From positions 8,070 through 72,069 of the forward strand of contig CAZPCQ010000001.1 in NCBI GenBank assembly GCA_964585155.1: a DNA stretch of 64,000 nt, in the 5' to 3' direction. The position numbers and the translations under genes were made by a program. Below are positions 8,206-62,433 of the stretch, one piece after another. This stretch comes from an uncultured Candidatus Saccharibacteria bacterium. GTDB taxonomy: Bacteria; Patescibacteriota; Saccharimonadia; Saccharimonadales; Saccharimonadaceae. The stretch's first letter is position 1. Each line of letters starts with the position of its first letter. The notes under the pieces are model-generated. The model saw only the letters and a list, made by a program, of their open reading frames with translations, made no database searches and was not told the origin of the DNA.

Positions 8206-8541
8206 AAGCCCTACAAGGCCCTTCTTTTTCCAACAAGGCATCCATCCTTTTCTTTTTTCATTAAAATTTATTTTCACATTTCAAAATTATTTTCAACAAA
8301 ACTCGCCCAACGCATTCATACCCACCTTTCACCAAACACCCACCTTCCTGGCCAAATTTAGCGCCTTTCCCACCATTTTATCCACCCATCACCACCCACA
8401 TTCTTCCACTCATTTTTCACTTATTTTCCGTTCGGTTTTCCTCTACCTCTGTTTTTCTTACCAAAACCGAACAACCCGAACACTTACCTCCAAACCCGAA
8501 CACATTTTATATCACTTTCTTCTAAATTATACAACCATCAC

Positions 8542-8757
8542 TTTTCCACATTACGTGGATAACTTTTCCGCTTTTTCACCATACCAAACCCGAACACAAA
8601 AAGTCCACTTTATTACTAACATAATTAGTTTCACCTCAGTTTTCCACTTATCCACTTTTATCTGTGGAAAACTCCCACTCCACCCACCGCTCCGACGGGG
8701 ATTTTTCTTATAAAAATCGGTGGTAAGTTTTCCACTTTTCCACCTACTTTTCCACAT
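8542..8757. promoter_or_regulatory. DnaA-box cluster downstream of recF
   Basis: TTTTCCACA (8542, 8749), CGTGGATAA (8554), TTATCCACT (8648), TGTGGAAAA (8663), TTTTCCACY (8640, 8729, 8737). Confidence 0.7.
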
Positions 8758-8776
8758 TATTCAAAAACTAATGACG

Positions 8777-9781
8777 TTATTCTACACTTAGTCCACCACT
8801 CCCCACACTTGTCAGCACAATCTGATTATCCCTAAAATTCTTCACTAGACACTTCTGCCTCATCTCATCCAGTTCCGAGAATACATCATCCAGTAATACT
8901 AGCGGTCTCTTCTCTAGTACCTCCAGTATCAACTCCGCCTCAATAAATTTTAACGCCAGAATGCTCGACCTCACCTCACCTCTACTCGCCGAGCCATCCG
9001 CTTTTCGTCCATTAAACACGAACTCATAGTTATCATGATGTACTCCAAAACTCGTATGTCCGAGCAGGGAATCACGCCCAAAATCCCGCTCCAGTCTCAA
9101 CAAGAAATCACTCTCTTCTTCCACTTCACTCAAATATTCCAATTTCACCTCATCCTCATTTTCCGCAATCGACCGATACACCTCCGTAAATCTCCGGTTT
9201 ATCTTCTCCATTATTTTTCTTCGCTCTTGATTTAGCGCCACTCCATGTTTTACCAGTAAAATATTCCAAGAAAACAAATCCCCTGGCATTATCATTTCAT
9301 CTTTCAATAATTCATTCCGCTGCTTCAGCGCCTTATTGTATCGCGTCAAATTCACCGCGTAGTTTTCCGATAACTGCCCAAACATCCGATCAAAATACCC
9401 CCGTTTACTCGTCGGACTCGACCCCACTAAGTGCAAATCATCCGGCTCAAACAATACAATCGGATATTGCAACTTTTTCGGCAGCCTCCCCGCTTTTTTA
9501 TCTTCCACCAAAAATTCTTTCTTCACCCCGTCATACACCGCCACTACTTTTCTGCCATCCTTATATTCCAACTCCACCCGATAAAATTCCGCCCCCCTTC
9601 GCAAAATCTCTTTATCCGCCGCCCGGAAACTTTTCCCCCGCAATACCTCATAGATCGCCTCTAGGATCGAAGTTTTCCCACATCCATTTTGCCCCATAAT
9701 AGTCGTCGTCTGCCCGGCACAATCCAGCACAAAACTCTCATGACTCCGAAAATTCACCAACTTCACTCGTCTAATTACCAT
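8777..9781 (-). CDS. recF: DNA replication/repair protein RecF
   Basis: GQNGCGKTSILEA, SASRGEVR, LLDDVFSELD; lies downstream of dnaN. Confidence 0.93.
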   Translation of the reverse strand: MVIRRVKLVNFRSHESFVLDCAGQTTTIMGQNGCGKTSILEAIYEVLRGKSFRAADKEILRRGAEFYRVELEYKDGRKVVAVYDGVKKEFLVEDKKAGRLPKKLQYPIVLFEPDDLHLVGSSPTSKRGYFDRMFGQLSENYAVNLTRYNKALKQRNELLKDEMIMPGDLFSWNILLVKHGVALNQERRKIMEKINRRFTEVYRSIAENEDEVKLEYLSEVEEESDFLLRLERDFGRDSLLGHTSFGVHHDNYEFVFNGRKADGSASRGEVRSSILALKFIEAELILEVLEKRPLVLLDDVFSELDEMRQKCLVKNFRDNQIVLTSVGSGGLSVE

Positions 9782-9914: not shown

Positions 9915-11021
9915 TCAACTCTTCAACGGCATTACTATATGAATGTAATTATTACACCCCACCCCCTGCACCACCACCGGATCCAACCTATTCGCAAACC
10001 GGAAAATCACTTCATCCTCTACCGTCGCATTCAGTGCATCTAGCAAAAACCTCGAGTTTAGTGTTACTTTTCCATCCACTTCTACTTTCGTCGCAATCTC
10101 TGAGCTATTCTCTCCTAATTCATTCGCCACTGCCGCAATCGCAAAAGTCCCATTTTCTACACTCGTGCTGCACACTACCGACCCACCTACTTCTCGCGCA
10201 AACAATGCCGCTAATTTTGTCACTCTGATCAACTCGCTTTTACCTAATTCCACTTTCACTTCCGATTCTTTCGGGATTAACTGTCGATAATCAGGGAACG
10301 AACCATCCACCAATTTTGAAGTTACCTCAATTCCATCTAAGCGGAACTTCACTTGCGTCTCGTCAAACAATATTTCCACTTCTTCCATTTCATCACTGAG
10401 CGACCGCATCACTTCCTGTAGCGACCCCGCCGGCACAATTGCCGACACTTCCGCCTCTACTTTATCCACCAGTTTACGCTCTGCCAGCCTATATCCATCC
10501 GTCGCCGCCACATACAGTCCACCTTCAAAAGTATTAAAATACACCCCAGTTAGCGCCGGTCGCGTCATATCACTACTCGCCGCCATCATCACTTGTCCCA
10601 GCCCCGCCTTAAATTCTTCCGCCGGCACCCGGAAACTCACCATTTTCTCTTCCTCTAATTCTGGCAATTCCGGAAAATCATCCGCCAACGCTCCATTAAT
10701 CATCGACCGACAAGCCCCCGCTTTCACTTCCACTTTCGTCCCATCCGCCGTAATTTCCACCATCTCACCCCTCGGTAGATTACTCACAAACTCCGCTATC
10801 AGTTTCGCCGGTACTGTCACTACTCCATTTTGACTATCCGTTACCGGTAACACACTCATTACTGCCATATCCAAATTTGTAGTGGTTAGACTTACTTTCT
10901 TATCTTCCACTCTTACTAATACATTGCTTAAAATCGGCAAAGTTGCCCGAGATCCCGCTGCTACTCGGCTCACATTACTTAAAGCCTTCGCCAACTTTTC
11001 CTGCAAAATCTTAATTTCCAT
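9915..11021 (-). CDS. dnaN: DNA polymerase III beta clamp
   Basis: LPILSNVL, RPALTG, AATDGYRLAE, GSFPDYRQLIP, IVMPL. Confidence 0.97.
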   Translation of the reverse strand: MEIKILQEKLAKALSNVSRVAAGSRATLPILSNVLVRVEDKKVSLTTTNLDMAVMSVLPVTDSQNGVVTVPAKLIAEFVSNLPRGEMVEITADGTKVEVKAGACRSMINGALADDFPELPELEEEKMVSFRVPAEEFKAGLGQVMMAASSDMTRPALTGVYFNTFEGGLYVAATDGYRLAERKLVDKVEAEVSAIVPAGSLQEVMRSLSDEMEEVEILFDETQVKFRLDGIEVTSKLVDGSFPDYRQLIPKESEVKVELGKSELIRVTKLAALFAREVGGSVVCSTSVENGTFAIAAVANELGENSSEIATKVEVDGKVTLNSRFLLDALNATVEDEVIFRFANRLDPVVVQGVGCNNYIHIVMPLKS

Positions 11022-11040
11022 ACTTCCTTTATCAGCCCTT

Positions 11041-11288
11041 CATTATAATTTATTTAATAATAGTAATAGTAAGTACTGTGGAAATTGTGGAAAACGCTCC
11101 CCCATATCTGTTTTCCTATGTGCAAATCGACCTGCAAAACTTTCCCACAGCCACGTGCAAAACTCCGACTTTTACCCACCAAAACCCCACTTTCCGACTT
11201 TTTCACAGCCCCCTTCCAACTTTCCCACAGTCTTTCCCACAAACTTTCCCACAAACTTATCCACATTTTTTCCACAGCCACCGCATTT
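11041..11288. promoter_or_regulatory. oriC: oriC: AT-rich DUE, DnaA-trios and DnaA boxes between dnaA and dnaN
   Basis: TAA TAA TAG TAA TAG TAA (11055-11072), then GTAC and TGTGGAAAT/TGTGGAAAA (11077, 11086). This matches the B. subtilis basal unwinding layout. Further boxes at 11221, 11233, 11245, 11257 (TTATCCACA) and 11268. Confidence 0.9.
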
Positions 11289-12662
11289 TTACCCATAAAT
11301 CTGCTCCCTCAGCTCGTTTACCTGATCCCTCAGACTGAAGTTCAATTTCAGGTCCTTTTCAATTTTCTTTACTCCGTGCATCACCGTTGTATGATCCTTC
11401 ACCCCTACCTCTAGCGCAATTTTCGGCGTACTCATCCCTAAATCTTTCGACAAAATATACATCGCCACCTGCCGTGCATTCTTAATATGCGCCACCCGAC
11501 TCTTTCCGCACATTTCTTTCGGTGTTAATTGATAAAACTTCGCCACTTTTTCTACCACCATCTTCGGTGACACCGTCTTCGCTCGTGTTGCATTAACCGA
11601 GTTCGCATACCCTTCCGTAATTACCTGATAAGGCGTCATATTCTTAAAATCTGCCACCGCCAAAATATGTGTCAACTCTCCTTCCAGTGCCCGAATATTT
11701 GTCTTCACATTATCCGCAATATATTCAATCGCTTCATCTTCAATTTCCGCTCCCCGGAACTCCGCCATCGATTTTAAAATCGCGCACCGGTCCTCAAACT
11801 GCGGCATCTGCAAATCATACTCACCCGCCTGTGATAGCCGCGACGCCAATCTCACATCTACCGACTTAATCTCATTCGGCAACCGATCCGATGTTACAAT
11901 AATCTGTTTGTCGTGTTGTGTTAGCTCGTTAAAAATATCAAAAAACTCCGCCTGTGACGCATCCTTATTCATGATCATCTGGAAATCATCAACAATCAAC
12001 ACATCTAATTTTTGGAATCTCTGCCGGAATTCCTCAATTTTTTTTGTCTGCAGCGCCTTAATGAAATCTGAATAAAAACTCGATATCGGCGTATAAAATA
12101 CTTTTAGTGACGGATCTCGCTTCAAGATCTCATTTCCGATCGCCTGCACTAGATGCGTCTTACCTAGTCCCGGTCCGCCATACAGGAAAAACGGGTTGTA
12201 TCTCGTCCCCGGCGCGTCAATTACATTTTGCGCCACGTTCACCGCTAGATCGTTATTTGTACCAATCACAAAATTATCTAGCGTATATCTTGGATTTAGC
12301 CCCGTTTGTACCGACCCGTTCACTAGTGGGGAAGAACGGTAATTTGAAGTCGCCACATTTGCTAATGACTGAATCGCATCCACTGGCGGTCTCGATATAT
12401 GATTTTTCGGTTTCGGCTTCTCTCGCGTCAAAATATCATATTTTATCTCTGTGACCGCTATGTCATTATGCGTCAGCGCCATCTTGATTACATCCGAGTA
12501 TTTCGACTGCAACTGTTTCCGCTTAAACACATTCGGCACCCCAATCACAATCAAATCATCTTCTATCGAAAGTAACTCTGCTCCAGTAAACCAAGTCGCA
12601 AACTGTTCCTTCGGAATCGTCTGTTCAATCTCAGCCATCACCTTCTTCCACACATCAAGCAT
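11289..12662 (-). CDS. dnaA: Chromosomal replication initiator DnaA
   Basis: YNPFFLYGGPGLGKTHL, DDFQ, RLASR, ARQVAMY, KDHTTVMHG. Confidence 0.98.
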   Translation of the reverse strand: MLDVWKKVMAEIEQTIPKEQFATWFTGAELLSIEDDLIVIGVPNVFKRKQLQSKYSDVIKMALTHNDIAVTEIKYDILTREKPKPKNHISRPPVDAIQSLANVATSNYRSSPLVNGSVQTGLNPRYTLDNFVIGTNNDLAVNVAQNVIDAPGTRYNPFFLYGGPGLGKTHLVQAIGNEILKRDPSLKVFYTPISSFYSDFIKALQTKKIEEFRQRFQKLDVLIVDDFQMIMNKDASQAEFFDIFNELTQHDKQIIVTSDRLPNEIKSVDVRLASRLSQAGEYDLQMPQFEDRCAILKSMAEFRGAEIEDEAIEYIADNVKTNIRALEGELTHILAVADFKNMTPYQVITEGYANSVNATRAKTVSPKMVVEKVAKFYQLTPKEMCGKSRVAHIKNARQVAMYILSKDLGMSTPKIALEVGVKDHTTVMHGVKKIEKDLKLNFSLRDQVNELREQIYG

Positions 12663-12679
12663 AGACCCCCGTCACCTCC

Positions 12680-12870
12680 TTCCTTAATAACTTCATTATA
12701 CCAAACCTTCTCCCATTTTTCCACAGTTTTTTCTCCAAAAACCCACATTTTCCAACTATGTTATAATATGTCCACTCCGTAACAGAGATAACTTTTCCAC
12801 AGCCAGCTCCAAATCTCTAGTTTAATATGTGGAAAACTTCTTGAAAAAAGTGGAAAACTGGTGTATACTA
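12680..12870. promoter_or_regulatory. Divergent dnaA/rpmH promoters with DnaA boxes
   Basis: Boxes at 12717, 12793, 12828, 12849. rpmH promoter TTGAAA(12841)-17-TATACT(12864). Minus-strand TGGTATAAT near 12686. Confidence 0.7.
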
Positions 12871-12925
12871 GAACAAGTAATTGCTATACATTAAAGCACA
12901 AGAGTAATAAATTGGAGAAAATACT

Positions 12926-13063
12926 ATGCCAAAGAGGACTTATCAGCCACACAAACGCCAACGCAAAGTCGAGCACGGCTTTATGAAGCGCAATAGCACC
13001 AAAAATGGTCAAAAAGTTCTGAAGCGCCGCCGTATTAAAGGTCGCGCCCGCTTAACCGCCTAA
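12926..13063 (+). CDS. rpmH: 50S ribosomal protein L34 (not in the ORF track)
   Basis: Translated by hand: [52 protein letters not shown]. Confidence 0.97.
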
Positions 13064-13101: not shown

Positions 13102-13145
13102 GAAGAAAAGAATACGAAGGGGTGGGAGTGCAAGCCCTTCAAAAA
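13097..13145 (+). repeat. Structured repeat family A, 3' remnant
   Basis: GAAGGGGTGGGAGTGCAAGCC is also present in the 14.1 and 62.2 kb copies. Confidence 0.7.
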
Positions 13146-14117: not shown

Positions 14118-14212
14118 TCCGAGGCGACGAACCGCCCCTGAAGCGGGGCCTAAGACTTGGCCGAGCGGCCCGGAGCGGCCCCGCGGAAGGGGTGGGAGTG
14201 CAAGCCATCGGA
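14118..14212 (+). repeat. Structured repeat family A, short copy inside a larger nested inverted repeat
   Basis: GGCGACGAACCGCCCCT..CTAAGACTTGGCCGAGCGG..GCGGCCCCGCGGAAGGGGTGGGAGTGCAAGCC, flanked by a perfect 19-bp IR (14068-14086/14248-14266). Confidence 0.85.
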
Positions 14213-16456: not shown

Positions 16457-18229
16457 TCACCGCGCCACGCATCTCACTGAAAGACCGTCATAACGGTTAC
16501 CATAACCACCGTTCTGTGCTGTGGGGTTTACTGAACTGCTGAAGGAGAGAACATATGATATAATATCGCTAACAGCACTATCGGATGACCAGTAATCGCC
16601 GCGAGAGCCAGCTTCTGTCATAGTCCCATGATACATATACCCACTGTATACGAAGAAAAGCGGCGCCAATCTGATATCGTATTGACCACTAGATAAGGTG
16701 CTCTGAAGGTTATATTGCGAGAGAAGGAAACCGAAAGATTTGCTGGATGTCTTATTATTGCCTATTGGTAGACGCCATCCCCTTGGACATATACTTCGTG
16801 AAGCAGATGCTTTGTCTGAAATATTCTGCGCCTCATTGGCTGTTGTTGCTCCCCAAGAGTAGTAATTACCTGATAAATAATGCGCGTCATACTCTTTATT
16901 AGTAACTACCTGGTTCCCCATATCTTTATAGAAATTAGGATTATCTGATGGAGTTAACGATTGTACGTTTTTCCATACATCTGCACATCCAGATAACGCA
17001 CTACCAGCGGTCAAATCACACTTTTTTATGGAAGTAGGATTTGAAAGTGCATATACGCCAGGGTTATAGTATTTCACCAAATTGGCGGTGTTTTGACTAC
17101 CGGACCAGAACCCACTCGCCCCCGTCGTCGACTTCCAGCTCCCCACTGTTTCCGGAATATCCGAATCCGCACTCGTCAGCGTCCTCCCGTTCAGATCAAG
17201 CGCCAAATTCTGCGTCATCCAACAGTTGCCATCCGCTAACTTCGCAATCCAGTAATACTTGCTATCTCTCGCATCCTTCACTCTTGCTGTATCACCTATC
17301 AGCGCCGCATCGCACACTCGCCACGTCATATCTTGCATTGTCGGCAGGGAAGATAGATTGACTACTTCTTTCGCATCTGTCGCTACACTCAGTGTGATAT
17401 TTGATTTATAGTGATCCGCTTTCGCCCCTTCCATATTTGCCGCGAACGCCAAAGTATATGGTTGTGTCACGTTGGTCAGTTGACTTCCATCACTTTTCTT
17501 CACTGTATCCGCCGCTATCCCTACTGTTGATTGGATTGCTTGATAAGTCAAACTCGCCGGGTCCGCATTATGACTTTTTGCCACCGCATAACCCCACTGC
17601 ATCGCGCCAATTCCATTCGCTGCTGTCGCTGTTGCGATACTACTAATTACATCCGGATTATTTGGTGTCGCACCGGTCAGCAAAGTACTGTCCGCCTGCA
17701 CGAACACTTGATATTGATCTACGTTGTTTGCTCCCACTGTGAAGTTTATGCTAATATATTGCGCTCCACCACTACTAGATACAGGCTGCGTGATAGTATT
17801 GTTATCCATTGCCGTGTCAATACTTAGTGCTACTCCTTTTTCCGGCACCGTTAGCGCTTGCGTATCGATCAAATTTTCTGTGTCACCCTCAGTTGCTGAT
17901 ACTTCACTTATTTGAGTAGGGAATATCATCATTCCGATTAACCCAACCAGAGCCAATGACGCCATCGCCGGCAAGCCTAGAGGAATTATCTTGCCCACAA
18001 TACGACTTTTCTTATGATTTAGACAAAATTCTTGGCGAGGGTCGCTCCCGAACTTTTCCACCACTCGTCCAGCCGCTTGTGTTTTCCTAAAGAAACTCTT
18101 ATTCAACTTATTTTTGTAGAAACAAGTACGTTTATCACTACGAAGAAGATGTGATTTTTGCTTAAGTTTTTCTGCACAAGAAACATTACTTTCTCGCACA
18201 GAATAAGTTTTCTTTATTCTATGCCTCAT
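16457..18229 (-). CDS. FISUMP (Fib_succ_major) domain surface protein 1
   Basis: LADGNCWMTQNL, GNYYSWGA, ICPRGWRLP, GDYWSS, GLSVRCVAR; TM helix; RBS AAGGAGG before MRHRIKK. Confidence 0.8.
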   Translation of the reverse strand: MRHRIKKTYSVRESNVSCAEKLKQKSHLLRSDKRTCFYKNKLNKSFFRKTQAAGRVVEKFGSDPRQEFCLNHKKSRIVGKIIPLGLPAMASLALVGLIGMMIFPTQISEVSATEGDTENLIDTQALTVPEKGVALSIDTAMDNNTITQPVSSSGGAQYISINFTVGANNVDQYQVFVQADSTLLTGATPNNPDVISSIATATAANGIGAMQWGYAVAKSHNADPASLTYQAIQSTVGIAADTVKKSDGSQLTNVTQPYTLAFAANMEGAKADHYKSNITLSVATDAKEVVNLSSLPTMQDMTWRVCDAALIGDTARVKDARDSKYYWIAKLADGNCWMTQNLALDLNGRTLTSADSDIPETVGSWKSTTGASGFWSGSQNTANLVKYYNPGVYALSNPTSIKKCDLTAGSALSGCADVWKNVQSLTPSDNPNFYKDMGNQVVTNKEYDAHYLSGNYYSWGATTANEAQNISDKASASRSICPRGWRLPIGNNKTSSKSFGFLLSQYNLQSTLSSGQYDIRLAPLFFVYSGYMYHGTMTEAGSRGDYWSSDSAVSDIISYVLSFSSSVNPTAQNGGYGNRYDGLSVRCVAR

Positions 18230-18566
18230 TGGCCCTCCTTGTTGGTTATTATTTTGGGCCAACACAAAATACTTGAATATAAATATAATTGGCCCTTCTT
18301 CGCTCGAGCGCCAACTTTCAGTCTACAACTAAAAACGACACCCTAGGTCCGAGTATCTCACTACGCGGAGGTGTCTACGTACAACTAATCTTTCGAATAC
18401 TTGTGAGCAAACGACTTTTTACCTAAGGTGCCGTTCAAATCTCATAAGTATTACCAAACTAGTTTCTTCAAACTTTAACAAATTGTACATAGATTATTAT
18501 AAAAATAATCCGCATAGTGAGATAACCCCATTATACCACATTTCTCACCAAATCAACCCAAAAAAC

Positions 18567-18622
18567 TTATCCACCACCCGCACACCACTTGTGCAAAACT
18601 CTGTGGAAAACTCTGTGCAAAA
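18567..18622. promoter_or_regulatory. DnaA-box-like cluster upstream of the FISUMP-1 promoter
   Basis: TTATCCACC 18567; TGTGCAAAA 18590; TGTGGAAAA 18602; TGTGCAAAA 18614. Confidence 0.55.
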
Positions 18623-40519: not shown

Positions 40520-42178
40520 CTAGCTGCCAGTAGTAAGGCAGCGAATTGACTGTGCGAAAGTCTGTGACGTGCCAGAGGATGTTCCCGCATAGTTAGCAGT
40601 AAATGTAAAGGCGTTAGCATCATTTCCATTAGGTATGGAGGTCCAATATCCCCCTTGCTTGCCTACATCATCATAGTCAGCCCCATTGCTGTATCGTCCG
40701 GCAGGCACTAAGTATTGTGGTGAATGCCGCAAAGTTCCATAATCACTACCCGTCACTGAGACTACGAAACTAGTAGGTAATTTCCATCCTTTAGGGCATA
40801 TATCACCATTCCCGCTAGCAGCACCAACGTTGCTACCACGAGTATTACTTGCATTTGCTGTATTATATGGGTAGTAATCGCCAACAAGATAATGAGTGTC
40901 TGTATTATTGGGGATACTTCCATTAAAGACCTCGAAATATGCTGTACAGGTAATAACTGTCCCTATATGGCAACCGGTCGATGGCATAGCTGCTGTGGCG
41001 CTAGATGGTTTATATATGTATGTGCCAGGATTATAGTAATTACCTAAGTCTGAAAACGTAAACACAGAAGGTACATTAGTGTCTTCCGGTTTCAATGTAG
41101 TCCCTACAGACAACGGCAAATCAAGATTTTGTGTCATCCAACAATTTCCGTCTTTCAGCTTGCCAACCCAATAAATAGTTTTGCCTAATCCACTCGTAGT
41201 GCGATCATCTACAAGTTGGATTTGGTCTCCGACTGCCATATTTGAGCAGACGGTCGGATATTTTGCGAACTCTTGCATTGTTGTTTCGCCACTTATTACA
41301 TCCAAAACGTCCCACTCATTCGGTAATACGGATAAAAGTACATTTGAAGTATAATGGCCAGCAACTTTATCTTTGCCGAATTTTGCTGCAAAGGAGATCT
41401 TAAGGGCTGCGCCAGCTCCCCCGGTACTTTTGTCAGTAGTATAACTTTCGGTCTTAGTTGGTTCTACTTCCGGCATAGTGCTATATTGTAAACTGGAATC
41501 AGCTTTGCTGGATTCTGCTATTGCGTATCCCCAAGTATTGTCTGCAAAATTATTGGGGGACACATTTTCTCCTACTCCAAATAACACATCGGGCGCTTCT
41601 TGGTTTTGCAATTTGTTAGAGTTTGCCTGTACATATACTTTGTAGCCTTGTGTTCGGCACGCTGTCACTGTAAAATCTTTTGAGAGATAGCTGACTGCAT
41701 TATTGGCAATATCGTCGTCTACACTCTTACTTAAATTTACATCTCCGGTCATATCAAGCGCTAAAACTGGTTTTCCGGCGGCACACTCTTCTGCTGGAGT
41801 TTCCGCATATACTCTTTCTCCGCCAACTCCCACTGGAAATATCATTAAACCTAATACCAAAAGAAGAGCAAATGAGGCTAGTACTAGAGGAATAGTACTA
41901 GGTCTAAGCGACCCAACTCTTCCTTTCCTAAGAAACCGTCCGCAGCGCCACGAGCGAGGAAGAGGTGGCTCGCACCCGTAACGACGGGCTGCGAGAACAC
42001 CGCGTTTCGTGGAAAGTGAAGAGTTGAGGTCGCTTGCGTCAGAGAACTTATCATTACTTGGCTTATCTTTGTAGAAATAAGTATAAGTACTTTTATCACT
42101 ATGAAGAAGATTTTGTCCATCACTAACGCAATGTAACAACGTACTTAAGTTTGGTATTTTCTTTATTCTATGGCGCAT
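40520..42178 (-). CDS. FISUMP domain surface protein 2
   Basis: LKDGNCWMTQNL, GDYYPYNTA, ICPKGWKLP, GGYWTS, QSIRCL; starts MRHRIKK like protein 1. Confidence 0.8.
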   Translation of the reverse strand: MRHRIKKIPNLSTLLHCVSDGQNLLHSDKSTYTYFYKDKPSNDKFSDASDLNSSLSTKRGVLAARRYGCEPPLPRSWRCGRFLRKGRVGSLRPSTIPLVLASFALLLVLGLMIFPVGVGGERVYAETPAEECAAGKPVLALDMTGDVNLSKSVDDDIANNAVSYLSKDFTVTACRTQGYKVYVQANSNKLQNQEAPDVLFGVGENVSPNNFADNTWGYAIAESSKADSSLQYSTMPEVEPTKTESYTTDKSTGGAGAALKISFAAKFGKDKVAGHYTSNVLLSVLPNEWDVLDVISGETTMQEFAKYPTVCSNMAVGDQIQLVDDRTTSGLGKTIYWVGKLKDGNCWMTQNLDLPLSVGTTLKPEDTNVPSVFTFSDLGNYYNPGTYIYKPSSATAAMPSTGCHIGTVITCTAYFEVFNGSIPNNTDTHYLVGDYYPYNTANASNTRGSNVGAASGNGDICPKGWKLPTSFVVSVTGSDYGTLRHSPQYLVPAGRYSNGADYDDVGKQGGYWTSIPNGNDANAFTFTANYAGTSSGTSQTFAQSIRCLTTGS

Positions 42179-42915: not shown

Positions 42916-44343
42916 ATGAAACGGGACACGGGTTTGATTTTCCACGCTTTCCTGATTTTGGGTGACGCGTGCGCGATTTTACTGTCCTTTTTGGCGGCTT
43001 ATTTTATGCGCACTCATTTGGACCAACGCCCATTTTATTTTGAGGCTGACCCTTGGCGCTTCGTTTTGTCAATGCTGGTTATGGTCCCCGTTTATCTTCT
43101 AATTATGGCTGCCCTCGGGCTGTACAAGAAATCCGTTTTTCTCAGCAATAGTCGCTGGCACGAAATCGGCCGCATTTTCCTCGCCTCTGTCATTGGGATG
43201 ATGGCGATTATCACCTGTGACTTCTTCTTTTCCACCGACCTTTTCCCGGTCAAAGTTATGGCATTATATGCTGTTTTCACCTGTTTTGTCTTGCTTAGTC
43301 TTTTCCGCGGTGGCGTCCGCCTCGTCCGCAGTTTTGCTCTCAAGCACAGCCACAAAGCCGCTCTTCGTGCCATCATTGTCGGCAATAGTCAAAATACCGA
43401 GTACCTCGCTGACTACATCTCCGCTTATCCCGAGTCTGGCTTCCGTCTTGCCGGTATAGTCGCCTCGCAGAAATATATCCCCAAAGATCTCCGCCGCAAA
43501 CAATATTCCTCTCTCAAAGAGGCCTTGCGCAAGGCCCGCCCCGACGTTATTTTCCAAACCGATGAGCGCCGTACTGATTACGTCTATCGTCAGGCTGTCA
43601 ATCGTCATCTCTATTATTATTTCGTGCCTTCTAGTGCTGCTCTTACCGCCCAGACCGGAGAAATGGAGCTCGTCGGCAGTACCCCGGCTATCTTAGTCAA
43701 AGTCACCCCTCTTGCCGGCGGTGCCCGCTTTGCCAAGCGCTGTTTCGATCTGTTTTTCGGGTCGATTATTTTACTGCTTGCCCTCATTCCGATGGTTCTC
43801 ATCTGGCTAATCGAGAAGATCTCCGATCCACACGCCCCTGCCGTCTATAGTGATATCCGCCTCTCCCGCTATAACAAGAAGTTCAAGATTTACAAATTCC
43901 GCTCCATCAAGTCAGAATACAACGGCCTCACCCCAGAGGAGGCCTTCGAGAAAATGGGCAAACCTCAGCTGATCAAAAAATACCGTGCCGGCGGCGATAT
44001 GATCCCTAACGACCCTCGTATCACCAAACTCGGCCACTTCCTCCGCGCCACTTCGCTGGACGAATTGCCGCAATTGTTTAACGTTGTCAAAGGCGACATC
44101 TCTCTCGTCGGTCCCCGTGCCCTCGTCCCCGGAGAACTCCGCCATTACGGCGATCGCTCCCTCCTCCTCTCGGTCAAATCTGGGCTTACTGGCCTCGCCC
44201 AAGTCTCCGGCCGCCGCGACATCGGTTTCGACGAACGTCGCGCCCTCGACCTCTATTACATCCAAAACTGGTCTATCTGGCTTGATCTCCGCATCCTCCT
44301 CCGCACGGTTGGCGCTGTTCTACTCTGTAAAGGGGCGAAATGA
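42916..44343 (+). CDS. Polyprenyl-phosphate sugar-1-phosphate transferase (WcaJ/WbaP family)
   Basis: KRCFDL, FKIYKFRS, DPRITKLGHFLRATSLDELPQLFNV, SLVGPR, DLYYIQNWS. Confidence 0.93.
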   Translation: MKRDTGLIFHAFLILGDACAILLSFLAAYFMRTHLDQRPFYFEADPWRFVLSMLVMVPVYLLIMAALGLYKKSVFLSNSRWHEIGRIFLASVIGMMAIITCDFFFSTDLFPVKVMALYAVFTCFVLLSLFRGGVRLVRSFALKHSHKAALRAIIVGNSQNTEYLADYISAYPESGFRLAGIVASQKYIPKDLRRKQYSSLKEALRKARPDVIFQTDERRTDYVYRQAVNRHLYYYFVPSSAALTAQTGEMELVGSTPAILVKVTPLAGGARFAKRCFDLFFGSIILLLALIPMVLIWLIEKISDPHAPAVYSDIRLSRYNKKFKIYKFRSIKSEYNGLTPEEAFEKMGKPQLIKKYRAGGDMIPNDPRITKLGHFLRATSLDELPQLFNVVKGDISLVGPRALVPGELRHYGDRSLLLSVKSGLTGLAQVSGRRDIGFDERRALDLYYIQNWSIWLDLRILLRTVGAVLLCKGAK

Positions 44344-46337
44344 CCTCTAGGAACTCTCCAAAGGTGGGCTCACGAGCGCAAAACCCCTCAAAATCACCCA
44401 AAAATGACCAACGGTCAGTTTTTCCTGTCAAAAACGCCCAAAAATCTCAAAAACCGAAAAAAGATAATTCTTCGTCGGAAACCGCGCTTTTTGACAAAGA
44501 ATCAAACTGGTCTTTGGAGGTTAGACACCTTTCTCCCAGAAAGGGGTCTAAATATGGCGTCGCCCTCGTCTGTGACTGGCTCACCACCCCTGGTGGCGCC
44601 GAAAAAGTTCTCCTCGAGCTCCACCGTATGTATCCCGACGCCCCCATCTACACCTCTCAATATAGTAAAAAGGGAATCGACTGGTTTGCTGACGCCGATG
44701 TTCGCACCGGCTGGCTCCAAATCTTCCCGAGAGCCTTCCGCAAATTCATCGGTCCCTTACGTCAGCTCTATTTTAGCCACCTCGACCTTTCCAGCTACGA
44801 TCTTGTTATCTCTGTTACTGGTGCTGAAGCCAAATCCGTCCGTACGAAACCTAGGCAACAATCTTCATCAAAAAGCTCCAAAACCGACCTCACCGTGCCC
44901 AAAAAACACCCATCATCAAAAAATGCACCTTCCATCGAACCGCAAACCGGCGCCACCCACCTCTGTTACTGTCACGTCCCTACCCAATACTATTGGCAAA
45001 TGTATGACAAATATGTCGCAAACCCTGGTTTTGGCCTGCTCAACCCTCTTGTTCGCCTCGCTTTTAGAGTTCTAGTCAAGCCTCTCCGCCAGGCCGATTA
45101 TCGCGCCGCTCAGCAGCCCGACCAGTTTATCACCATCTCAAATTACGCCAAAGATCAGATTCAGAAATACTATCAGCGTGACGCTGTTGTCATCGCTCCG
45201 CCGGTCGAAGTTGCCAAATTTACCCGCTCTTCTGTGTGCTCTCTGCCGGAAAACTCTAAAAATCATCGACGGAATTCTACTTTTCCACCGGAAGTAGCCC
45301 AGAAATCCACTGCTAGTGGGGAATTATCCACCAAATCTCCCAAGATTTCCACAAATTCTCCACAAGAAATCCACTGCACGCCTCATACTTTTCCATCAAG
45401 ATCATCTACTTCTCCACAGATTATCCACAGCCAAAACGTAGTTTATCCACAGGGGATTACAACTTCTCCACAACATTTCCACCAGAAATCCACCGAAAAC
45501 CGTAACTTTTCCACAACTTCTCCACAGAATATAGCAGATCTTTCCACCGTTAGCACTAAAATTTCCACAACTTTTCCACAAGTTTTCCACAATCAAAGTC
45601 AAAGTTATCCACAGGACGGATATTTTATCATTTCTTGTCGCCAGGTGAACTGGAAACGCGTTGACCTTGCCATCACCGCCTGCAAATCTCTTCATCTCCC
45701 CCTCAAAGTCATCGGTAGCGGCCCCGAGCATTCACGCCTTGTCAAACTTGCCGATAACTGTCCTAATATTGAATTTATCCCTTGGCTCGACACTGGAGAA
45801 TTAGCCCATTTTCTGCAAAATGCCACCGCCTATCTTTTTCCTAGCCTTGAGCCTTTTGGCATCGCTGCTGTCGAGGCTCTTGCTGCCGGTTGTCCCGTCA
45901 TCGCCTATCGCGAGGGCGGCAGCCAAGACTTTATCGAAGAAGGGAAGAATGGGCTCTTCTTCGATCAGCAGACTCCGGATTCTCTTATCAAGGCTCTCCA
46001 TACTTTCTATGATTACGACTTCGACCCCAATATTGTCGCTCAGACCGCCCAGCGTTTTAGTCCTGACCACTTCCGCCAGCAGATTCAGTCTCTCATCAAT
46101 CAATCTTTTCACGGTATCGTGAAATCAGATCTCGACCCCAGTCAAAGCCACCCCAGTTCATCGACCTCATCTCACTCCAAGCCTATCACGCAAGCCAAAC
46201 AAGGTCACTCAAATCCCAAAGCATCAAACTCCTCATCCCGCCCCAAATCCATCACGAAATCCAAACCTCAGCCCAAAGATCTCATATCAGACCATCGTGC
46301 CAATAAAAAATCAACCAAGAAAGGAACAAATTTATGA
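44340..46337 (+). CDS. GT4 glycosyltransferase with several low-complexity insertions
   Basis: VALVCDWLT..GGAEKV, WKRVDLAI, EPFGIAAVEALAAGCPVIAY. Confidence 0.88.
   Translation: MTSRNSPKVGSRAQNPSKSPKNDQRSVFPVKNAQKSQKPKKDNSSSETALFDKESNWSLEVRHLSPRKGSKYGVALVCDWLTTPGGAEKVLLELHRMYPDAPIYTSQYSKKGIDWFADADVRTGWLQIFPRAFRKFIGPLRQLYFSHLDLSSYDLVISVTGAEAKSVRTKPRQQSSSKSSKTDLTVPKKHPSSKNAPSIEPQTGATHLCYCHVPTQYYWQMYDKYVANPGFGLLNPLVRLAFRVLVKPLRQADYRAAQQPDQFITISNYAKDQIQKYYQRDAVVIAPPVEVAKFTRSSVCSLPENSKNHRRNSTFPPEVAQKSTASGELSTKSPKISTNSPQEIHCTPHTFPSRSSTSPQIIHSQNVVYPQGITTSPQHFHQKSTENRNFSTTSPQNIADLSTVSTKISTTFPQVFHNQSQSYPQDGYFIISCRQVNWKRVDLAITACKSLHLPLKVIGSGPEHSRLVKLADNCPNIEFIPWLDTGELAHFLQNATAYLFPSLEPFGIAAVEALAAGCPVIAYREGGSQDFIEEGKNGLFFDQQTPDSLIKALHTFYDYDFDPNIVAQTAQRFSPDHFRQQIQSLINQSFHGIVKSDLDPSQSHPSSSTSSHSKPITQAKQGHSNPKASNSSSRPKSITKSKPQPKDLISDHRANKKSTKKGTNL
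45281..45613 (+). repeat. Phased DnaA-box array inside the GT4 coding sequence
   Basis: 20 (T/A)T(A/T/C)TCCAC-type 9-mers, every gap 11, 21 or 22 bp; perfect TTATCCACA at 45421, 45443 and 45605. Confidence 0.9.
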
Positions 46338-48328
46338 AGATCCTCCGCAACCTTCTCTGGCCCCTAGTCTACGCCCTCCCTGCCGTCCTCTTTTTCTCCT
46401 ATCACCCCGTCATCGGCCTCGGCGCCAACTCCTCCATGAACTTCGAACTCTCCCTTCCGCTCCTCTGGCTGATTATTTTTGATTTCTTTAGTTTCATTAC
46501 AATGGTCGTCCTCTTCGTTCAAAAACGTCAATCAGCGCAGCACAAATCCACTTCAAAATCAATAGGCCAAGCATCCGCCCGCTCTAAGCATCACTCTGGC
46601 CCCTGGGGACCTCACCTCCCTGGCCTCACCGACCGCCGCTTCTTCCTCTTAGCCATTTTCCCGCTCTACCTCACCATCTCGGTTTTCTGGTCGGCCAATC
46701 CCCTCCGCGGTCTCTTCACCGCCGGCGTGATGTGGGCTGTCTTTTTCGCCGTTTTCTCTCTGTTATTTATTGTCCCCCAGACTGGCGCTCCTCGCCGCCT
46801 CCGCACTCACGTCCTCTTGACAATGTTCATCTCCGCTGTTATCGTTTGCAAATTTTGCTATGCTCAGAGTATTATGGATACTTGCTTTGGCCTTTCCCGC
46901 GATGCTACTCTCCTCTGCCCCGGCTGCACTTACCGCTCCTTCGGCTTTCCTCATCCTTCCGGCTTCGCCATCGAGCCCCAGTTTATGGGCAATCTCCTTC
47001 TCGCCCCCACCCTCACCGCGCTCTATCTCGTCGCCTTCCGCTCGCGCAAATTCGCCAATACCGTTATCCATGAAGCCTCTCATCTTGAGAATGAGGCCGA
47101 ACATAATCTCCTTCACGACCAAGTTCACCTCCCCGAGGTCAACTGGAAACTCTGGCAACGCATCGGTATGATCATCCTCGCCGGCTTCCTTTCGATGACG
47201 CTGTTTTTCACCTTCTCCCGCGGCGCCATTTACGCTTACGTCGTCGCCATCTTGAGTATGCTAATTTTTGCCCTCAAGCGTCACCAATTCCGCTGGAGCC
47301 TCATCGCTATCCCCGTTGTCAGTTTCATCCTCTCGCTCAGCCTCCAGGGAACATTCGCCGCCGTCGGCCCCACCGCTGAGACTTTCTTCTCCGGCGTCGC
47401 CAAATCCGTCCACCAGCTCTCCCTCGGCCTCATCGACTTCCGTTCGCTCGCTTATGAGCCCTCCGAGGACGCCATCGAGCAATATAGTTATGAGCATGCC
47501 GTCCCCACCTCTGTCGCTCGGGAGATTCTCAAACGTCAATATCAATCCCAGCTCTCTTCTCAATCTGTGAAAAACTCCTCATCAAACGGTGGAAAACCTG
47601 TGGATAAAACCAGCCTAGATGTGGAAAAGAATGACCAAAATGTAGATAAAATCGATCAAGATGTAGAAAAAACCGCCGAAATCATCGACCACGAAATCAC
47701 CAAAGAGGAAACCAAGTTAGAAAACGAGGTTGATACTACGCTTGAAGATATCATTTTCGAGGGCTACGTTCCCGAATCCACCAATATCCGCCTGCACCTC
47801 AATCGCGCCGCCATCGACACCTGGCTTTCCGCCCCCGGCCATCCCGAGTCCGGCCTCAGTATTGGTCTCAAATGTTCCCACTCCGACCCCTGCCTTGCCT
47901 CTGGTAAACTCACTCCCACCAGCATCCTCTTCGGCGTTGGCCTTGGTGGTGCCGGCACCGCCCTCTATCTCAATTCTCCCGTTACTGACATTAACTCGCC
48001 CAAAGAAATCGTCCAAAACGAACCCTTCTCCCTCCTCTTAGAAACCGGACTCGTCGGCATCGCTCTGGCTATTTTCGGACTCCTCATCATCTTCGCGCCC
48101 CAGATTTTCACGCGCAAATTCCTCGACGGCAAATCCGCTCCAGCTACCAAATCCACCCCCAGCCCCTTCTGGCGCCATCCCGCTCTCCCGCTTCTCCTCT
48201 CCCTCATCGTCGCCTACGTCATCACCCTCAATTTCTTCTCCGGCCTCCCCAACGCCCTCCAGATTTACCTCATGCCGCCCCTCCTCTACCTCATCTTTTC
48301 TGACCACTACCGCGTCACCACTGTTTAG
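46334..48328 (+). CDS. O-antigen ligase/polymerase-like (Wzy_C) membrane protein
   Basis: Many TMs; GFAIEPQ, TFSRGA, FGVGLGG, NEPFSLLLETGLVG. Confidence 0.75.
   Translation: MKILRNLLWPLVYALPAVLFFSYHPVIGLGANSSMNFELSLPLLWLIIFDFFSFITMVVLFVQKRQSAQHKSTSKSIGQASARSKHHSGPWGPHLPGLTDRRFFLLAIFPLYLTISVFWSANPLRGLFTAGVMWAVFFAVFSLLFIVPQTGAPRRLRTHVLLTMFISAVIVCKFCYAQSIMDTCFGLSRDATLLCPGCTYRSFGFPHPSGFAIEPQFMGNLLLAPTLTALYLVAFRSRKFANTVIHEASHLENEAEHNLLHDQVHLPEVNWKLWQRIGMIILAGFLSMTLFFTFSRGAIYAYVVAILSMLIFALKRHQFRWSLIAIPVVSFILSLSLQGTFAAVGPTAETFFSGVAKSVHQLSLGLIDFRSLAYEPSEDAIEQYSYEHAVPTSVAREILKRQYQSQLSSQSVKNSSSNGGKPVDKTSLDVEKNDQNVDKIDQDVEKTAEIIDHEITKEETKLENEVDTTLEDIIFEGYVPESTNIRLHLNRAAIDTWLSAPGHPESGLSIGLKCSHSDPCLASGKLTPTSILFGVGLGGAGTALYLNSPVTDINSPKEIVQNEPFSLLLETGLVGIALAIFGLLIIFAPQIFTRKFLDGKSAPATKSTPSPFWRHPALPLLLSLIVAYVITLNFFSGLPNALQIYLMPPLLYLIFSDHYRVTTV
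47566..47670 (+). repeat. Small phased DnaA-box array inside the ligase-like gene
   Basis: Boxes at 47566, 47588, 47599 (perfect TGTGGATAA), 47620, 47641, 47662. Confidence 0.75.
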
Positions 48329-50252: not shown

Positions 50253-51737
50253 ATGCTAAAACTCAACACTAAATTAAAATACCCACTCTTCACAATAACT
50301 TTTGCGTTGGGTGGATTTTTCTTATTTCAATACCTAACTTTTATTCCCGAATACTCCAACGCCACAACTATAGAAACTCCCGTCTACGACGATTCCAAAG
50401 TCGACACGCGCACTCTTTCTGACATTACTTATATGCAAGAAATGACATCTGGAATATGTAAACGTTCTGTAAAAAATGAAAGTAAACAACTTATCGATGG
50501 CCGTGATGGAAAACACTATTGGGTAACAAAGCTCGTTGGTCCAGGCGGTGAAGAAAAAAATGGATGTTGGATGACGCAAAATTTGGATTTCGATTTGTGG
50601 AATGAGGAGACTAATGAACCAATAGTATTAAAAGTGGATAATTTAAATTTTATGGGCACAGATATAGAAAAGAATTGGGAGTCTACTTCTGGGAGATCTG
50701 TGCTATGGGCGGATTCGGGGAGCGAGACAGTTAAGTACTATGACCCGGGGTACTATTTGTATAAAGGCTTTTCTTTACGTCAGCCGGCGTCTCGCGATTT
50801 GGCATATGGCAAGGCATCGGAAAATTTGACCTTGACGGATGCTCATTACCTTCAAGGGAATTACTATTCATTCAACGCTGCTACGGCTGGCAAAGGGGCA
50901 AATTTTGGCCTTGTGGGTAAGGATGAAGATGTACGGAGTAGTATTTGTCCGAAAGGCTGGAGGCTACCTACGGCTCTTAGTGATGATGGGGTGTCATTCA
51001 ATTTTTTAAATACAGTAAGCACAACTAAGATATTTTCATCACCGTATTTCTTTATAAATAGCGGTTTTGTGAATGGAGGCTTGCTAGATGATGCCTTCGC
51101 TGGTAGATACTGGTCTTCTACGGCTTATGCTTATAGGGACGATGCTTATGATTGGGGTTTTGCTGATGGTGACGAGTGGCCAGCGCTTGGTATAATTTAC
51201 AGATATGAGGGAAAGACTATAAGATGCGTAGCGAGGGACGATACTGAAGATGTGGAGACTCCGGGCATTGATAATCCAAACACCTCCGTCACCGTCCCAA
51301 ACATAATAACACTAGACGTAAGTAATAATGTAAATATAGAAACAAATACTAATACAGTAAACGAAGGTAGTTTCACCGCTTCCGTCAGTTCTAATGCTCC
51401 ATATAGCATTAGTCTTAGTACCACGGATGGTGGCCACACCGACTTACGTAATGATAATACCAACTCCTCCATTCCCGCATTAAACCCTACTTCTAATATC
51501 ACAGAGAGTAGTAGTAAATGGTGGGGAATCAAATGTACTAACTCAGGCACTTCCACGGGTTGTACTAAAACAACCTATACTGGTCTTACTAATCACTTAA
51601 CTCCCACTCTTTTCTATACATCAACTCAAAGTACCTCTAACCAACTCACCCACTTCACCATCGGCATCCAAACCTCTCCCGACCTCCCAAGTGGCACTTA
51701 TTCCACCAGTATATTAGTTACTGCATCTCAGAATTAG
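50253..51737 (+). CDS. FISUMP domain surface protein 3 (FISUMP first, beta-sandwich domain last)
   Basis: NGCWMTQNL, GNYYSFNAA, ICPKGWRLP, GRYWSST, TIRCVAR; RBS AAGGAGG. Confidence 0.8.
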   Translation: MLKLNTKLKYPLFTITFALGGFFLFQYLTFIPEYSNATTIETPVYDDSKVDTRTLSDITYMQEMTSGICKRSVKNESKQLIDGRDGKHYWVTKLVGPGGEEKNGCWMTQNLDFDLWNEETNEPIVLKVDNLNFMGTDIEKNWESTSGRSVLWADSGSETVKYYDPGYYLYKGFSLRQPASRDLAYGKASENLTLTDAHYLQGNYYSFNAATAGKGANFGLVGKDEDVRSSICPKGWRLPTALSDDGVSFNFLNTVSTTKIFSSPYFFINSGFVNGGLLDDAFAGRYWSSTAYAYRDDAYDWGFADGDEWPALGIIYRYEGKTIRCVARDDTEDVETPGIDNPNTSVTVPNIITLDVSNNVNIETNTNTVNEGSFTASVSSNAPYSISLSTTDGGHTDLRNDNTNSSIPALNPTSNITESSSKWWGIKCTNSGTSTGCTKTTYTGLTNHLTPTLFYTSTQSTSNQLTHFTIGIQTSPDLPSGTYSTSILVTASQN

Positions 51738-62217: not shown

Positions 62218-62433
62218 TTTGAAGGCGACGAACCGCCCCTGGAGCGGGGCCTAAGACTTGGCCGAGCGGATTCCGAACTGCCGAGGATAGCGACTAGAAA
62301 GAAAAAGTCAGTACGTATCAATATATAACCAATGTAATACAAATGACTTTTTCTTTCTGGAGCGACGCAGGCAGCACGTGGCGTCAGCCACTGCAGCGGC
62401 CCCGCGGAAGGGGTGGGAGTGCAAGCCTTCAAA
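62218..62433 (+). repeat. Structured repeat family A, full copy in the dnaK leader
   Basis: TTTGAAGGC..GCCTTCAAA termini; homologous to 38661-38870. Confidence 0.9.

Follow-up and report, generated by a model that had tools for sequence, protein, structure and literature searches.

The 64,000-nucleotide stretch of DNA analyzed here, referred to below as the window (contig CAZPCQ010000001.1 of GenBank assembly GCA_964585155.1, from an uncultured Candidatus Saccharibacteria bacterium; all positions are those of the window), contains an envelope-glycopolymer gene cluster in which one gene carries, within its coding sequence, an array of 9-mers resembling the boxes recognized by the initiator protein DnaA. 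The host gene (46334..48328, plus strand) encodes a 664-residue polytopic membrane protein of the Wzy_C (O-antigen ligase/polymerase-like) family, and the cluster around it includes a Wzm/Wzt- or TagG/TagH-like ABC exporter, a UDP-galactopyranose mutase, GT2 and GT4 transferases, a polyprenyl glycosylphosphotransferase and an LCP protein. The array occupies positions 47566..47670 and consists of six DnaA-box-like 9-mers that are all oriented toward the minus strand and therefore appear on the coding strand as TGTGNAWAA-like words. The gene cluster has two further arrays of this kind, both larger.

The six 9-mers start at 47566, 47588, 47599, 47620, 47641 and 47662, giving start-to-start gaps of 22, 11, 21, 21 and 21 nt. 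Their plus-strand letters are TGTGAAAAA (47566), GGTGGAAAA (47588), TGTGGATAA (47599), TGTGGAAAA (47620), TGTAGATAA (47641) and TGTAGAAAA (47662), and the corresponding box readings on the minus strand are, in the same order, TTTTTCACA, TTTTCCACC, TTATCCACA, TTTTCCACA, TTATCTACA and TTTTCTACA, with 2, 2, 0, 1, 1 and 2 mismatches to TTATCCACA in a mismatch scan. The stringent consensus TTWTNCACA is matched by three of the six: TTTTTCACA at 47566..47574 (-), translated (S)VKN, the perfect box TTATCCACA at 47599..47607 (-), translated (P)VDK, and TTTTCCACA at 47620..47628 (-), translated (D)VEK, the last being the commonest variant over all arrays described below (116 of 202 boxes). All six sites share a strand and deviate by no more than ~1.5 bp from a common helical face. 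Frame 2 accounts for five boxes (as xVDK, xVEK or SVKN, i.e., xV(D/E/K)(K/N)) and frame 0 for one (as GGK), the peptide over the array being NGGKPVDKTSLDVEKNDQNVDKIDQDVEK, which is translated within the open reading frame (ORF) as ..SVKNSSSNGGKPVDKTSLDVEKNDQNVDKIDQDVEK... Contigs from four independent runs carry positions 44579-48259 without any difference, and no copy-number variants are visible in them.

At the protein level the array falls in a variable insertion (47513..47728, plus strand; residues ~394-465), hydrophilic and predicted to be disordered, whose residues are present in few orthologs, and which sits in the large loop between the transmembrane (TM) segments at residues ~321-344 and ~563-594. 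Hydropathy and the AlphaFold model (pLDDT 79, pTM 0.80) both describe a polytopic protein in which the Wzy_C helices are followed by a large hydrophilic loop, and in the model pLDDT falls below 50 at residues 409-445, which are encoded by the array, and at residues 455-480. The 105-nt stretch thus doubles as protein code, in frame, in a disordered and length-variable insertion of a Wzy_C-type envelope protein from a gut Saccharibacterium. An initial annotation of the window had described six boxes with these gaps and a perfect site at 47599, encoding this peptide in frame in a hydrophilic loop between TM blocks, together with two larger arrays elsewhere in the window; recomputation reproduced the sites, gaps and translation exactly, placed the array between conserved blocks of one ORF and located the two larger arrays (see below). 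The same annotation called the protein O-antigen-ligase-like, a name that holds in part. The window protein matches Wzy_C (PF04932) at 22.7 bits, below the Pfam cut-off of 31.7, and gives a faint NCBIfam match to the O-glycosylation ligases (TIGR03097, E = 0.003), Foldseek comparison of the confident model with the PDB returned no fold match (best E = 0.38, TM-score at most 0.14), and a PDB sequence search with the host protein found no relative; most of the 120 best homologs, on the other hand, carry a precomputed PF04932 match. From these profile matches, "Wzy_C-type membrane protein" appears to be a fair label, and "O-antigen ligase" is unproven.

The array exceeds what base composition or the encoded peptide would produce. 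In 2,000 dinucleotide shuffles of the gene, the number of same-strand sites with no more than two mismatches per 105 nt never rose to six (one shuffle gave five), nor did the number with no more than one mismatch rise to three, and shuffling the local 221 nt instead of the gene likewise yielded no case at either threshold. When the peptide was held fixed and the codons were redrawn from the usage of the array's own strand (20,000 synonymous recodings), the recodings averaged 0.066 stringent boxes where 3 are observed, and a fraction of 5e-5 reached three; for sites of no more than two mismatches the mean was 2.55 against 6 observed, and the fraction was 1.5e-4. The boxes need the valine codon GTG, which is rare on this C-rich strand (21 of 435 valine codons). 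Over the whole window, 53 sites of no more than one mismatch are found where 13.8 ± 3.7 are expected, and they concentrate around dnaA and in the three intragenic arrays.

Eighty loci encoding the host protein were fetched, all from Saccharibacteria or Nanosyncoccus assemblies, many of them labelled as sheep, goat or water-buffalo gut or rumen, and the 80 orthologs were aligned (32-62% identity). The initial annotation had proposed comparing loop lengths among orthologs, and had reasoned that orthologs keeping the peptide and losing the 9-mers would indicate selection on the protein; the reverse was found. The loop corresponding to query residues ~394-465 varies from 0 to 128 residues and is not alignable, so that the peptide is lost, while TGTGGAAAA/TGTGGATAA are retained across the 80 loci, at synonymous sites and at the third base of the codon before. 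A word count made de novo gave the same motif, since every one of the top-enriched 8-mers in the orthologous loops is contained in TGTGGAAAAC/TGTGGATAA, with 13- to 530-fold enrichment over the remainder of the gene, and GTGGAAAA alone occurs in 37 of 81 loops (135-fold over the remainder of the gene). At V[DE][NK] motifs in the loops, 113 of 120 valine codons are GTG (other genes at the same loci, taken as background, 85 of 300), T precedes the valine codon in 92 of 120 (background 95 of 300), and aspartate or glutamate is written GAA or GAT in 114 of 120 (background 189 of 300). Even Nanosyncoccus-like orthologs of ~33% identity, in which the strand composition is opposite and the Wzy cluster lies on the G-rich strand, retain in the corresponding loop the pair TGTGGAAAAnnnTGTGGAAAA, 12 nt apart.

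The same conclusion is reached at the level of the motif, for which all clusters of at least three stringent boxes in the window and its relatives were pooled, the set being chosen for open frames. Pooled boxes use every one of the three reading frames and run both with and against the gene, and they are translated into six different peptide motifs (FST/LST, xFH(K/N/R), xFPQ/xYPQ, CGK/CAK, xVEN/xVDK and LCKT). In this set TGTGGATAA is never found in the frame in which its TAA would be a stop, which fits translated arrays, bearing in mind that the set was picked for open frames. Information content drops to at most 0.5-1 bit immediately beside the 9-mer and amounts to 0.1-1 bit outside it; conservation is thus limited to the nine bases, with no copying of a longer unit, a mobile element or a tandem repeat, and a longer in-frame repeat or mobile element of the Rickettsia type was ruled out on this ground. 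Spacing is no less restricted. Adjacent same-strand boxes in the window and the 80 loci are 11 (51 times), 12 (42 times), 21 (28 times) or 22 nt (30 times) apart, the other spacings being 24, 32, 33, 42-44, 53, 54 and 63-66 and a single 58, whereas in-frame but off-phase spacings of 15, 18, 27, 30, 36, 39, 45 and 48 are not found in this set. The spectrum is therefore confined to about multiples of 10.5 bp, bar one, and the phasing rule that the initial annotation had seen to be shared with the larger arrays extends to the relatives with this single exception. As far as the spacing tells, such phasing is the requirement of a protein that would bind cooperatively on one helical face. Taken together, these observations make it very probable that the array is a DnaA-box array selected at the level of DNA.

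The two sister arrays lie in the same cluster. Sister array 2 (45281..45613, plus strand; ~14 boxes, reading TTNTCCACA on the coding strand) is translated STT/SPQ/YPQ/FHQ and falls where the GT4 glycosyltransferase gene at 44340-46337 encodes its inter-domain linker. Sister array 1 (33687..33974, minus strand; 11-14 boxes) lies in the N-terminal extension of a TagH/Wzt-like ABC ATPase encoded at 33616-34761, and its boxes include three at 11-nt intervals, each read in the next frame (SCGK-DVEN-LCKT). Certain relatives have the GT4 and Wzy_C proteins joined in a single polypeptide of ~1000 residues (L025 4887-7964; L038 6291-9290; proteins P0052, P0084 and P0092). Over 1.33 Mb of relatives, all 39 clusters of at least three boxes are found in orthologs of these three genes (GT4, 20; Wzy_C, 15; ABC ATPase, 4), and box density is 1.34/kb in the three genes against 0.099/kb elsewhere, with a mononucleotide expectation of 0.083/kb. 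A DNA-uptake or polarity motif was ruled out, since the sites are clustered and phased and their density elsewhere is at chance level. Box counts per locus range from 0 to 22, the arrays having been gained and lost independently in each gene, and at one locus (L017) the array has moved to another loop of the same protein.

The window also holds a canonical origin region, in which recF-dnaN-dnaA diverges from rpmH-rnpA-yidC with boxes in both spacers. The dnaA-dnaN spacer (11021..11289, plus strand), which is the likely oriC, has co-oriented boxes at 11221, 11233, 11245, 11257 and 11268 (spacing 12, 12, 12 and 11 nt) beside a 30-mer of 93% A+T at 11039, and it uses the same 9-mer variants and the same 11-12-nt spacing as the intragenic arrays. 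The rpmH-dnaA spacer (12663..12926, no strand assigned) has boxes at 12717, 12793, 12828 and 12849. Between the spacers lies dnaA (11289..12662, minus strand), whose product retains in domain IV the motif RQxAMY, the loop proline and DHTTVMH, the residues known from PDB entry 1J1V to read the box. The protein can be aligned over its full length with the B. subtilis DnaA structure 8btg, with RQVAMY, TPKIA and DHTTVMH aligned, and judging from this alignment the DnaA of this genome is canonical, its box-reading domain IV being kept. The Wzy_C gene lies 33.7 kb from dnaA in the window and 28.6, 22.1, 16.6, 21.8, 21.5, 17.1, 30.0 and 37.0 kb from it in the eight relatives that have both genes on one contig, always on the rpmH side. 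No AT-rich unwinding element was found beside any of the three intragenic arrays, where the maximum A+T is 0.73-0.80 compared with 0.93 in the dnaA-dnaN spacer; for the array at 47566-47670 the maximum per 30 nt within ±300 nt is 0.77 and falls inside the array itself. The dnaA-dnaN spacer is moreover overlaid by a stop-free ORF call (11054-11296, minus strand; equivalents at L201 2867-3172 and in L203-L211; 80-182 residues) that overlaps the dnaA stop by 8 nt and has peptides of the type LWISLWESLWERLWES..YYYYY. As a gene it is probably spurious, since its peptides show no conservation and its start codon is placed within the conserved C-terminus of dnaA.

In B. subtilis, DnaA-box clusters close to oriC restrain initiation, deletion of all six leads to early initiation, and such clusters have been predicted to be common in bacteria devoid of SeqA/Hda (PMC3245932). 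Stable DnaA binding in this species is set by local box density and affinity (PMC2533591), and in the low-affinity arrays of E. coli oriC, sites 2 bp apart (an 11-bp period) support cooperative binding (PMC6727663). We propose that the canonical DnaA of the present organism would likewise bind the 9-mers, and that, the boxes being co-oriented and separated by 11/12 or 21/22 bp along the same helical face, neighboring DnaA molecules could touch and bind cooperatively as they do on low-affinity oriC arrays. Since the arrays have no unwinding element, they would not fire; they would hold or inactivate DnaA near the origin and so act as an initiator sink that tunes initiation, comparable to the oriC-proximal clusters of B. 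subtilis or to E. coli datA. Coding constraints would set the permitted box variant and frame, with frames that give hydrophilic peptides predominating. The description with the best support is that of a DnaA-box cluster set within coding sequence, having the oligomer-scaffold part of an origin, lacking the unwinding part and placed a few tens of kb from dnaA. DnaA binding, its cooperativity and its effect on initiation are what we infer by analogy with these systems, and whether the main role of the array would be that of an initiator sink or regulator of initiation we consider evenly balanced. The explanation as a whole, a coding-embedded DnaA-box cluster near oriC that would serve as a cooperative DnaA sink or regulator, is the one to which we incline, if only slightly.

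Several observations weigh against this explanation. The arrays are dispensable, as loci L019 and L037 share the synteny and carry none, and their confinement to genes of one pathway is not predicted by a pure sink model. The sites of the present array are partly weak, with two mismatches in three of the six, and the array is small, with three stringent boxes only. The DNA covered amounts to ~64 kb of this genome and ~20 kb per relative, and it is for that part that the distribution of arrays is known; further arrays may lie elsewhere in the genome. Finally, plus-strand GC skew is strongly negative on both flanks of dnaA and does not change sign in the window. GC skew at third codon positions, which reaches -0.78, is -0.6 to -0.8 to the left of dnaA and -0.2 to -0.6 to its right, regardless of gene strand, a step in magnitude only being seen near 12.7-14 kb, and eight relatives also show one sign of skew on both flanks; in another Saccharibacterium the usual symmetrical pattern was reported (PMC6031116). 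Because no sign change occurs at dnaA, the term "origin-proximal" is founded on the link with dnaA and the presence of the oriC-like spacer. The shared sign on the two flanks may mean that replication near this origin region is non-canonical in the clade.

The main rival, which does not exclude a sink role, is that the arrays serve DnaA-dependent control of the envelope-glycopolymer genes themselves, DnaA oligomers acting on them as a roadblock to RNA polymerase or as a modulator of transcription, with any sink function secondary; surface-polymer synthesis and export would in that case be coupled to the status of the initiator. If the arrays regulated their host genes, their confinement to one pathway would be explained, every array in the window and in the 1.33 Mb of relatives lying in the genes for the TagH/Wzt-like ATPase, the GT4 enzyme or the Wzy_C protein. 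Box orientation relative to the gene is also largely kept (plus in 18 of 20 GT4 clusters, minus in 17 of 17 Wzy clusters), even when the cluster is on the other replication strand, and in B. subtilis DnaA has been described as a repressor that blocks initiation and/or forms a roadblock (PMC2533591). However, each gene has acquired and lost its arrays independently, an array can shift to another loop, as in L017, orientation flips in L021 and L035, and the orientation bias could reflect the peptides that each linker tolerates. We regard gene control as possible but unlikely to be the principal function. It is considerably harder to see the arrays as functionless, slippage-prone short repeats in tolerant disordered linkers, whose likeness to DnaA boxes, and any binding, would be incidental. 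Copy number and loop length do vary widely, some relatives have no array, and units of 21 and 33 nt preserve the reading frame, as this explanation would have it; yet unit duplication or gene conversion cannot maintain a motif of which only the 9-mer is conserved, and the motif persists where the proteins are no more than ~33% identical and where the strand composition of the genome is opposite. Use of a rare codon, the occurrence of the 9-mer in the neighboring gene in the opposite orientation and in other frames, and the absence of spacings that are in frame and out of helical phase likewise make neutral repeats improbable.

Phased sites on one strand imply some cooperative binder on one helical face, so that a protein other than DnaA, or some further function of the DNA near the origin, for instance in organizing the nucleoid or anchoring domains, has to be considered as well, and Ishikawa et al. 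raised a stabilized domain structure around oriC as a possible role of such sites (PMC2533591). Against a different binder stand the exact agreement of the motif with the DnaA consensus TTWTNCACA, the recurrence of the same variants and spacing in the dnaA-dnaN spacer of this genome, and a canonical DnaA domain IV, and we give this alternative slightly less credence still than neutral repeats. Selection on a peptide repeat, in which a (D/N)xxV(D/E)K heptad would be conserved and the box likeness would follow from codon choice, is close to refuted. The last four units are indeed spaced by 21 nt, or 7 residues, and the loop is hydrophilic, but synonymous recoding falls far short of the observed boxes, as given above, the constraints on codons and on the neighboring base hold in the orthologs, with no mixed valine, aspartate or glutamate codons, and the peptides differ among orthologs and frames while the 9-mer stays, in a segment that is predicted to be disordered. 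A conserved peptide with drifting synonymous sites would have been expected, and the reverse is seen. A second replication origin inside the gene, or the remnant of one, is just as improbable. Although the arrays are denser in boxes than the dnaA-linked oriC and GC skew does not switch sign at dnaA, the lack of an AT-rich unwinding element at all three arrays is the ground on which we reject it, skew does not change sign locally at the arrays either, and the arrays are translated parts of conserved genes. Each of these last four explanations is thus less likely than the coding-embedded DnaA-box cluster that we favor.

Some further observations concern box-like sequences elsewhere. Translated arrays are too short and too variable for protein searches: a homology search with translated sister array 1 gave no match, and phmmer with a translated array against 1.84 billion representatives gave three weak matches, of which P0003 alone resembles a translated box array. 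This predicted protein of 225 residues consists of (K/R)xCGKxAENLRK in 11-residue repeats followed by FFH motifs, and looks like a gene call through the DnaA-box array of another organism. A scan of metagenome contigs for three boxes within 75 nt, which is not quantitative, returned at least 120 loci; among the loci listed, none belongs to the three Saccharibacteria gene families, and dnaA is nearby in 14. In-frame triplets are seen there in unrelated genes (L139 201-251; L148 1955-1999; L143 1573-1626; L144 6362-6475; L097 3523-3555), the products being MnmE (DNYVDK repeats), a high-GC actinobacterial ABC exporter in the linker between its transmembrane and nucleotide-binding domains (GYPQ, three times), phage- or plasmid-like HTH_36 proteins (L143 and L144) and unannotated proteins (FSTPVDN, three times). 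From these isolated in-frame triplets, the principle of translated boxes may be wider than this clade.

Within the window, an intergenic cluster of DnaA-box-like sites in mixed orientation is present downstream of recF (8290-8830), and an intergenic triplet with 12-nt spacing (18567-18622; TTTTGCACA, TTTTCCACA, TTTTGCACA) lies upstream of a Fib_succ_major-like gene at 16457-18265. The latter is one of three paralogs with weak Fib_succ_major matches, at 16457-18265 (-), 40520-42178 (-) and 50253-51737 (+); the paralogs at 40520-42178 and 50253-51737 are poorer in G+C, show hardly any strand skew and may have been acquired recently. We also would like to point out a 21-mer, GAAGGGGTGGGAGTGCAAGCC, that occurs three times, always on the plus strand (13116-13136, 14186-14206 and 62407-62427), upstream of rnpA, yidC and dnaK, where chance would give no copy; it may be a shared regulatory or promoter-proximal element.

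The arrays have long been kept in evolution and shape protein length, codon choice and the frames that are permitted. They provide a natural case of dual coding, in which a putative cooperative protein-binding array is laid over a translated linker, and a testable handle on replication control in the Candidate Phyla Radiation (CPR). For annotation they imply that low-complexity insertions in CPR proteins may be DNA elements, and that stop-free box arrays get called as ORFs. A wider reading, to which we attach only tentative weight, is that the clade would keep extra-origin DnaA-binding capacity inside reading frames, the same bases setting both the availability of the initiator and the expression or architecture of surface-polymer genes; if true, replication initiation would be coupled to envelope synthesis.

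Sites for an initiator within a reading frame are known from phage lambda, whose ori lies inside gene O, where the repeats bound by the initiator encode a linker between domains; in lambda these sites constitute the origin and belong to the gene of the initiator, whereas the host genes described here are unrelated to replication. Rickettsia palindromic elements are DNA repeats inserted in frame in surface-exposed or linker parts of proteins, and are long, mobile, palindromic and conserved over their full length. The present arrays share with them a DNA-level element tolerated in frame in a linker, but the 9-mer alone is conserved and there is no unit structure. E. coli datA, which lowers initiation potential once replicated, is likewise a DnaA-box cluster outside the origin, but it is non-coding, depends on an essential IHF site and stimulates DnaA-ATP hydrolysis, while the array considered here is coding. 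The low-affinity arrays of E. coli oriC also consist of co-oriented 9-mers, whose 11-bp period guides progressive cooperative loading according to Rozgaja et al. (2011) as related in PMC6727663; they belong to an origin with a DNA unwinding element, whereas the arrays of the window lack one and lie 20-36 kb from oriC. The closest model is offered by the DnaA-box clusters (DBCs) of B. subtilis (Ishikawa, 2007, PMC2533591; Okumura, 2012, PMC3245932), which lie outside oriC, mostly near it, in a bacterium with a bipartite dnaA-linked origin, where DnaA is stably bound in accordance with local box density, initiation is restrained by the DBCs jointly and some of them regulate neighboring genes. 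Clusters in model organisms have thus been described at intergenic or non-coding sites, such as the DBCs and datA; the arrays reported here are located in frame in the coding sequences of three conserved genes and are translated, strictly co-oriented and helically phased. A full-text literature search for DnaA boxes in Saccharibacteria or Patescibacteria, or for intragenic or coding-region clusters, found no paper. Clusters of DnaA boxes outside the origin are already known, and it is their conserved, phased and in-frame translated form in three non-replication genes that appears to be new.

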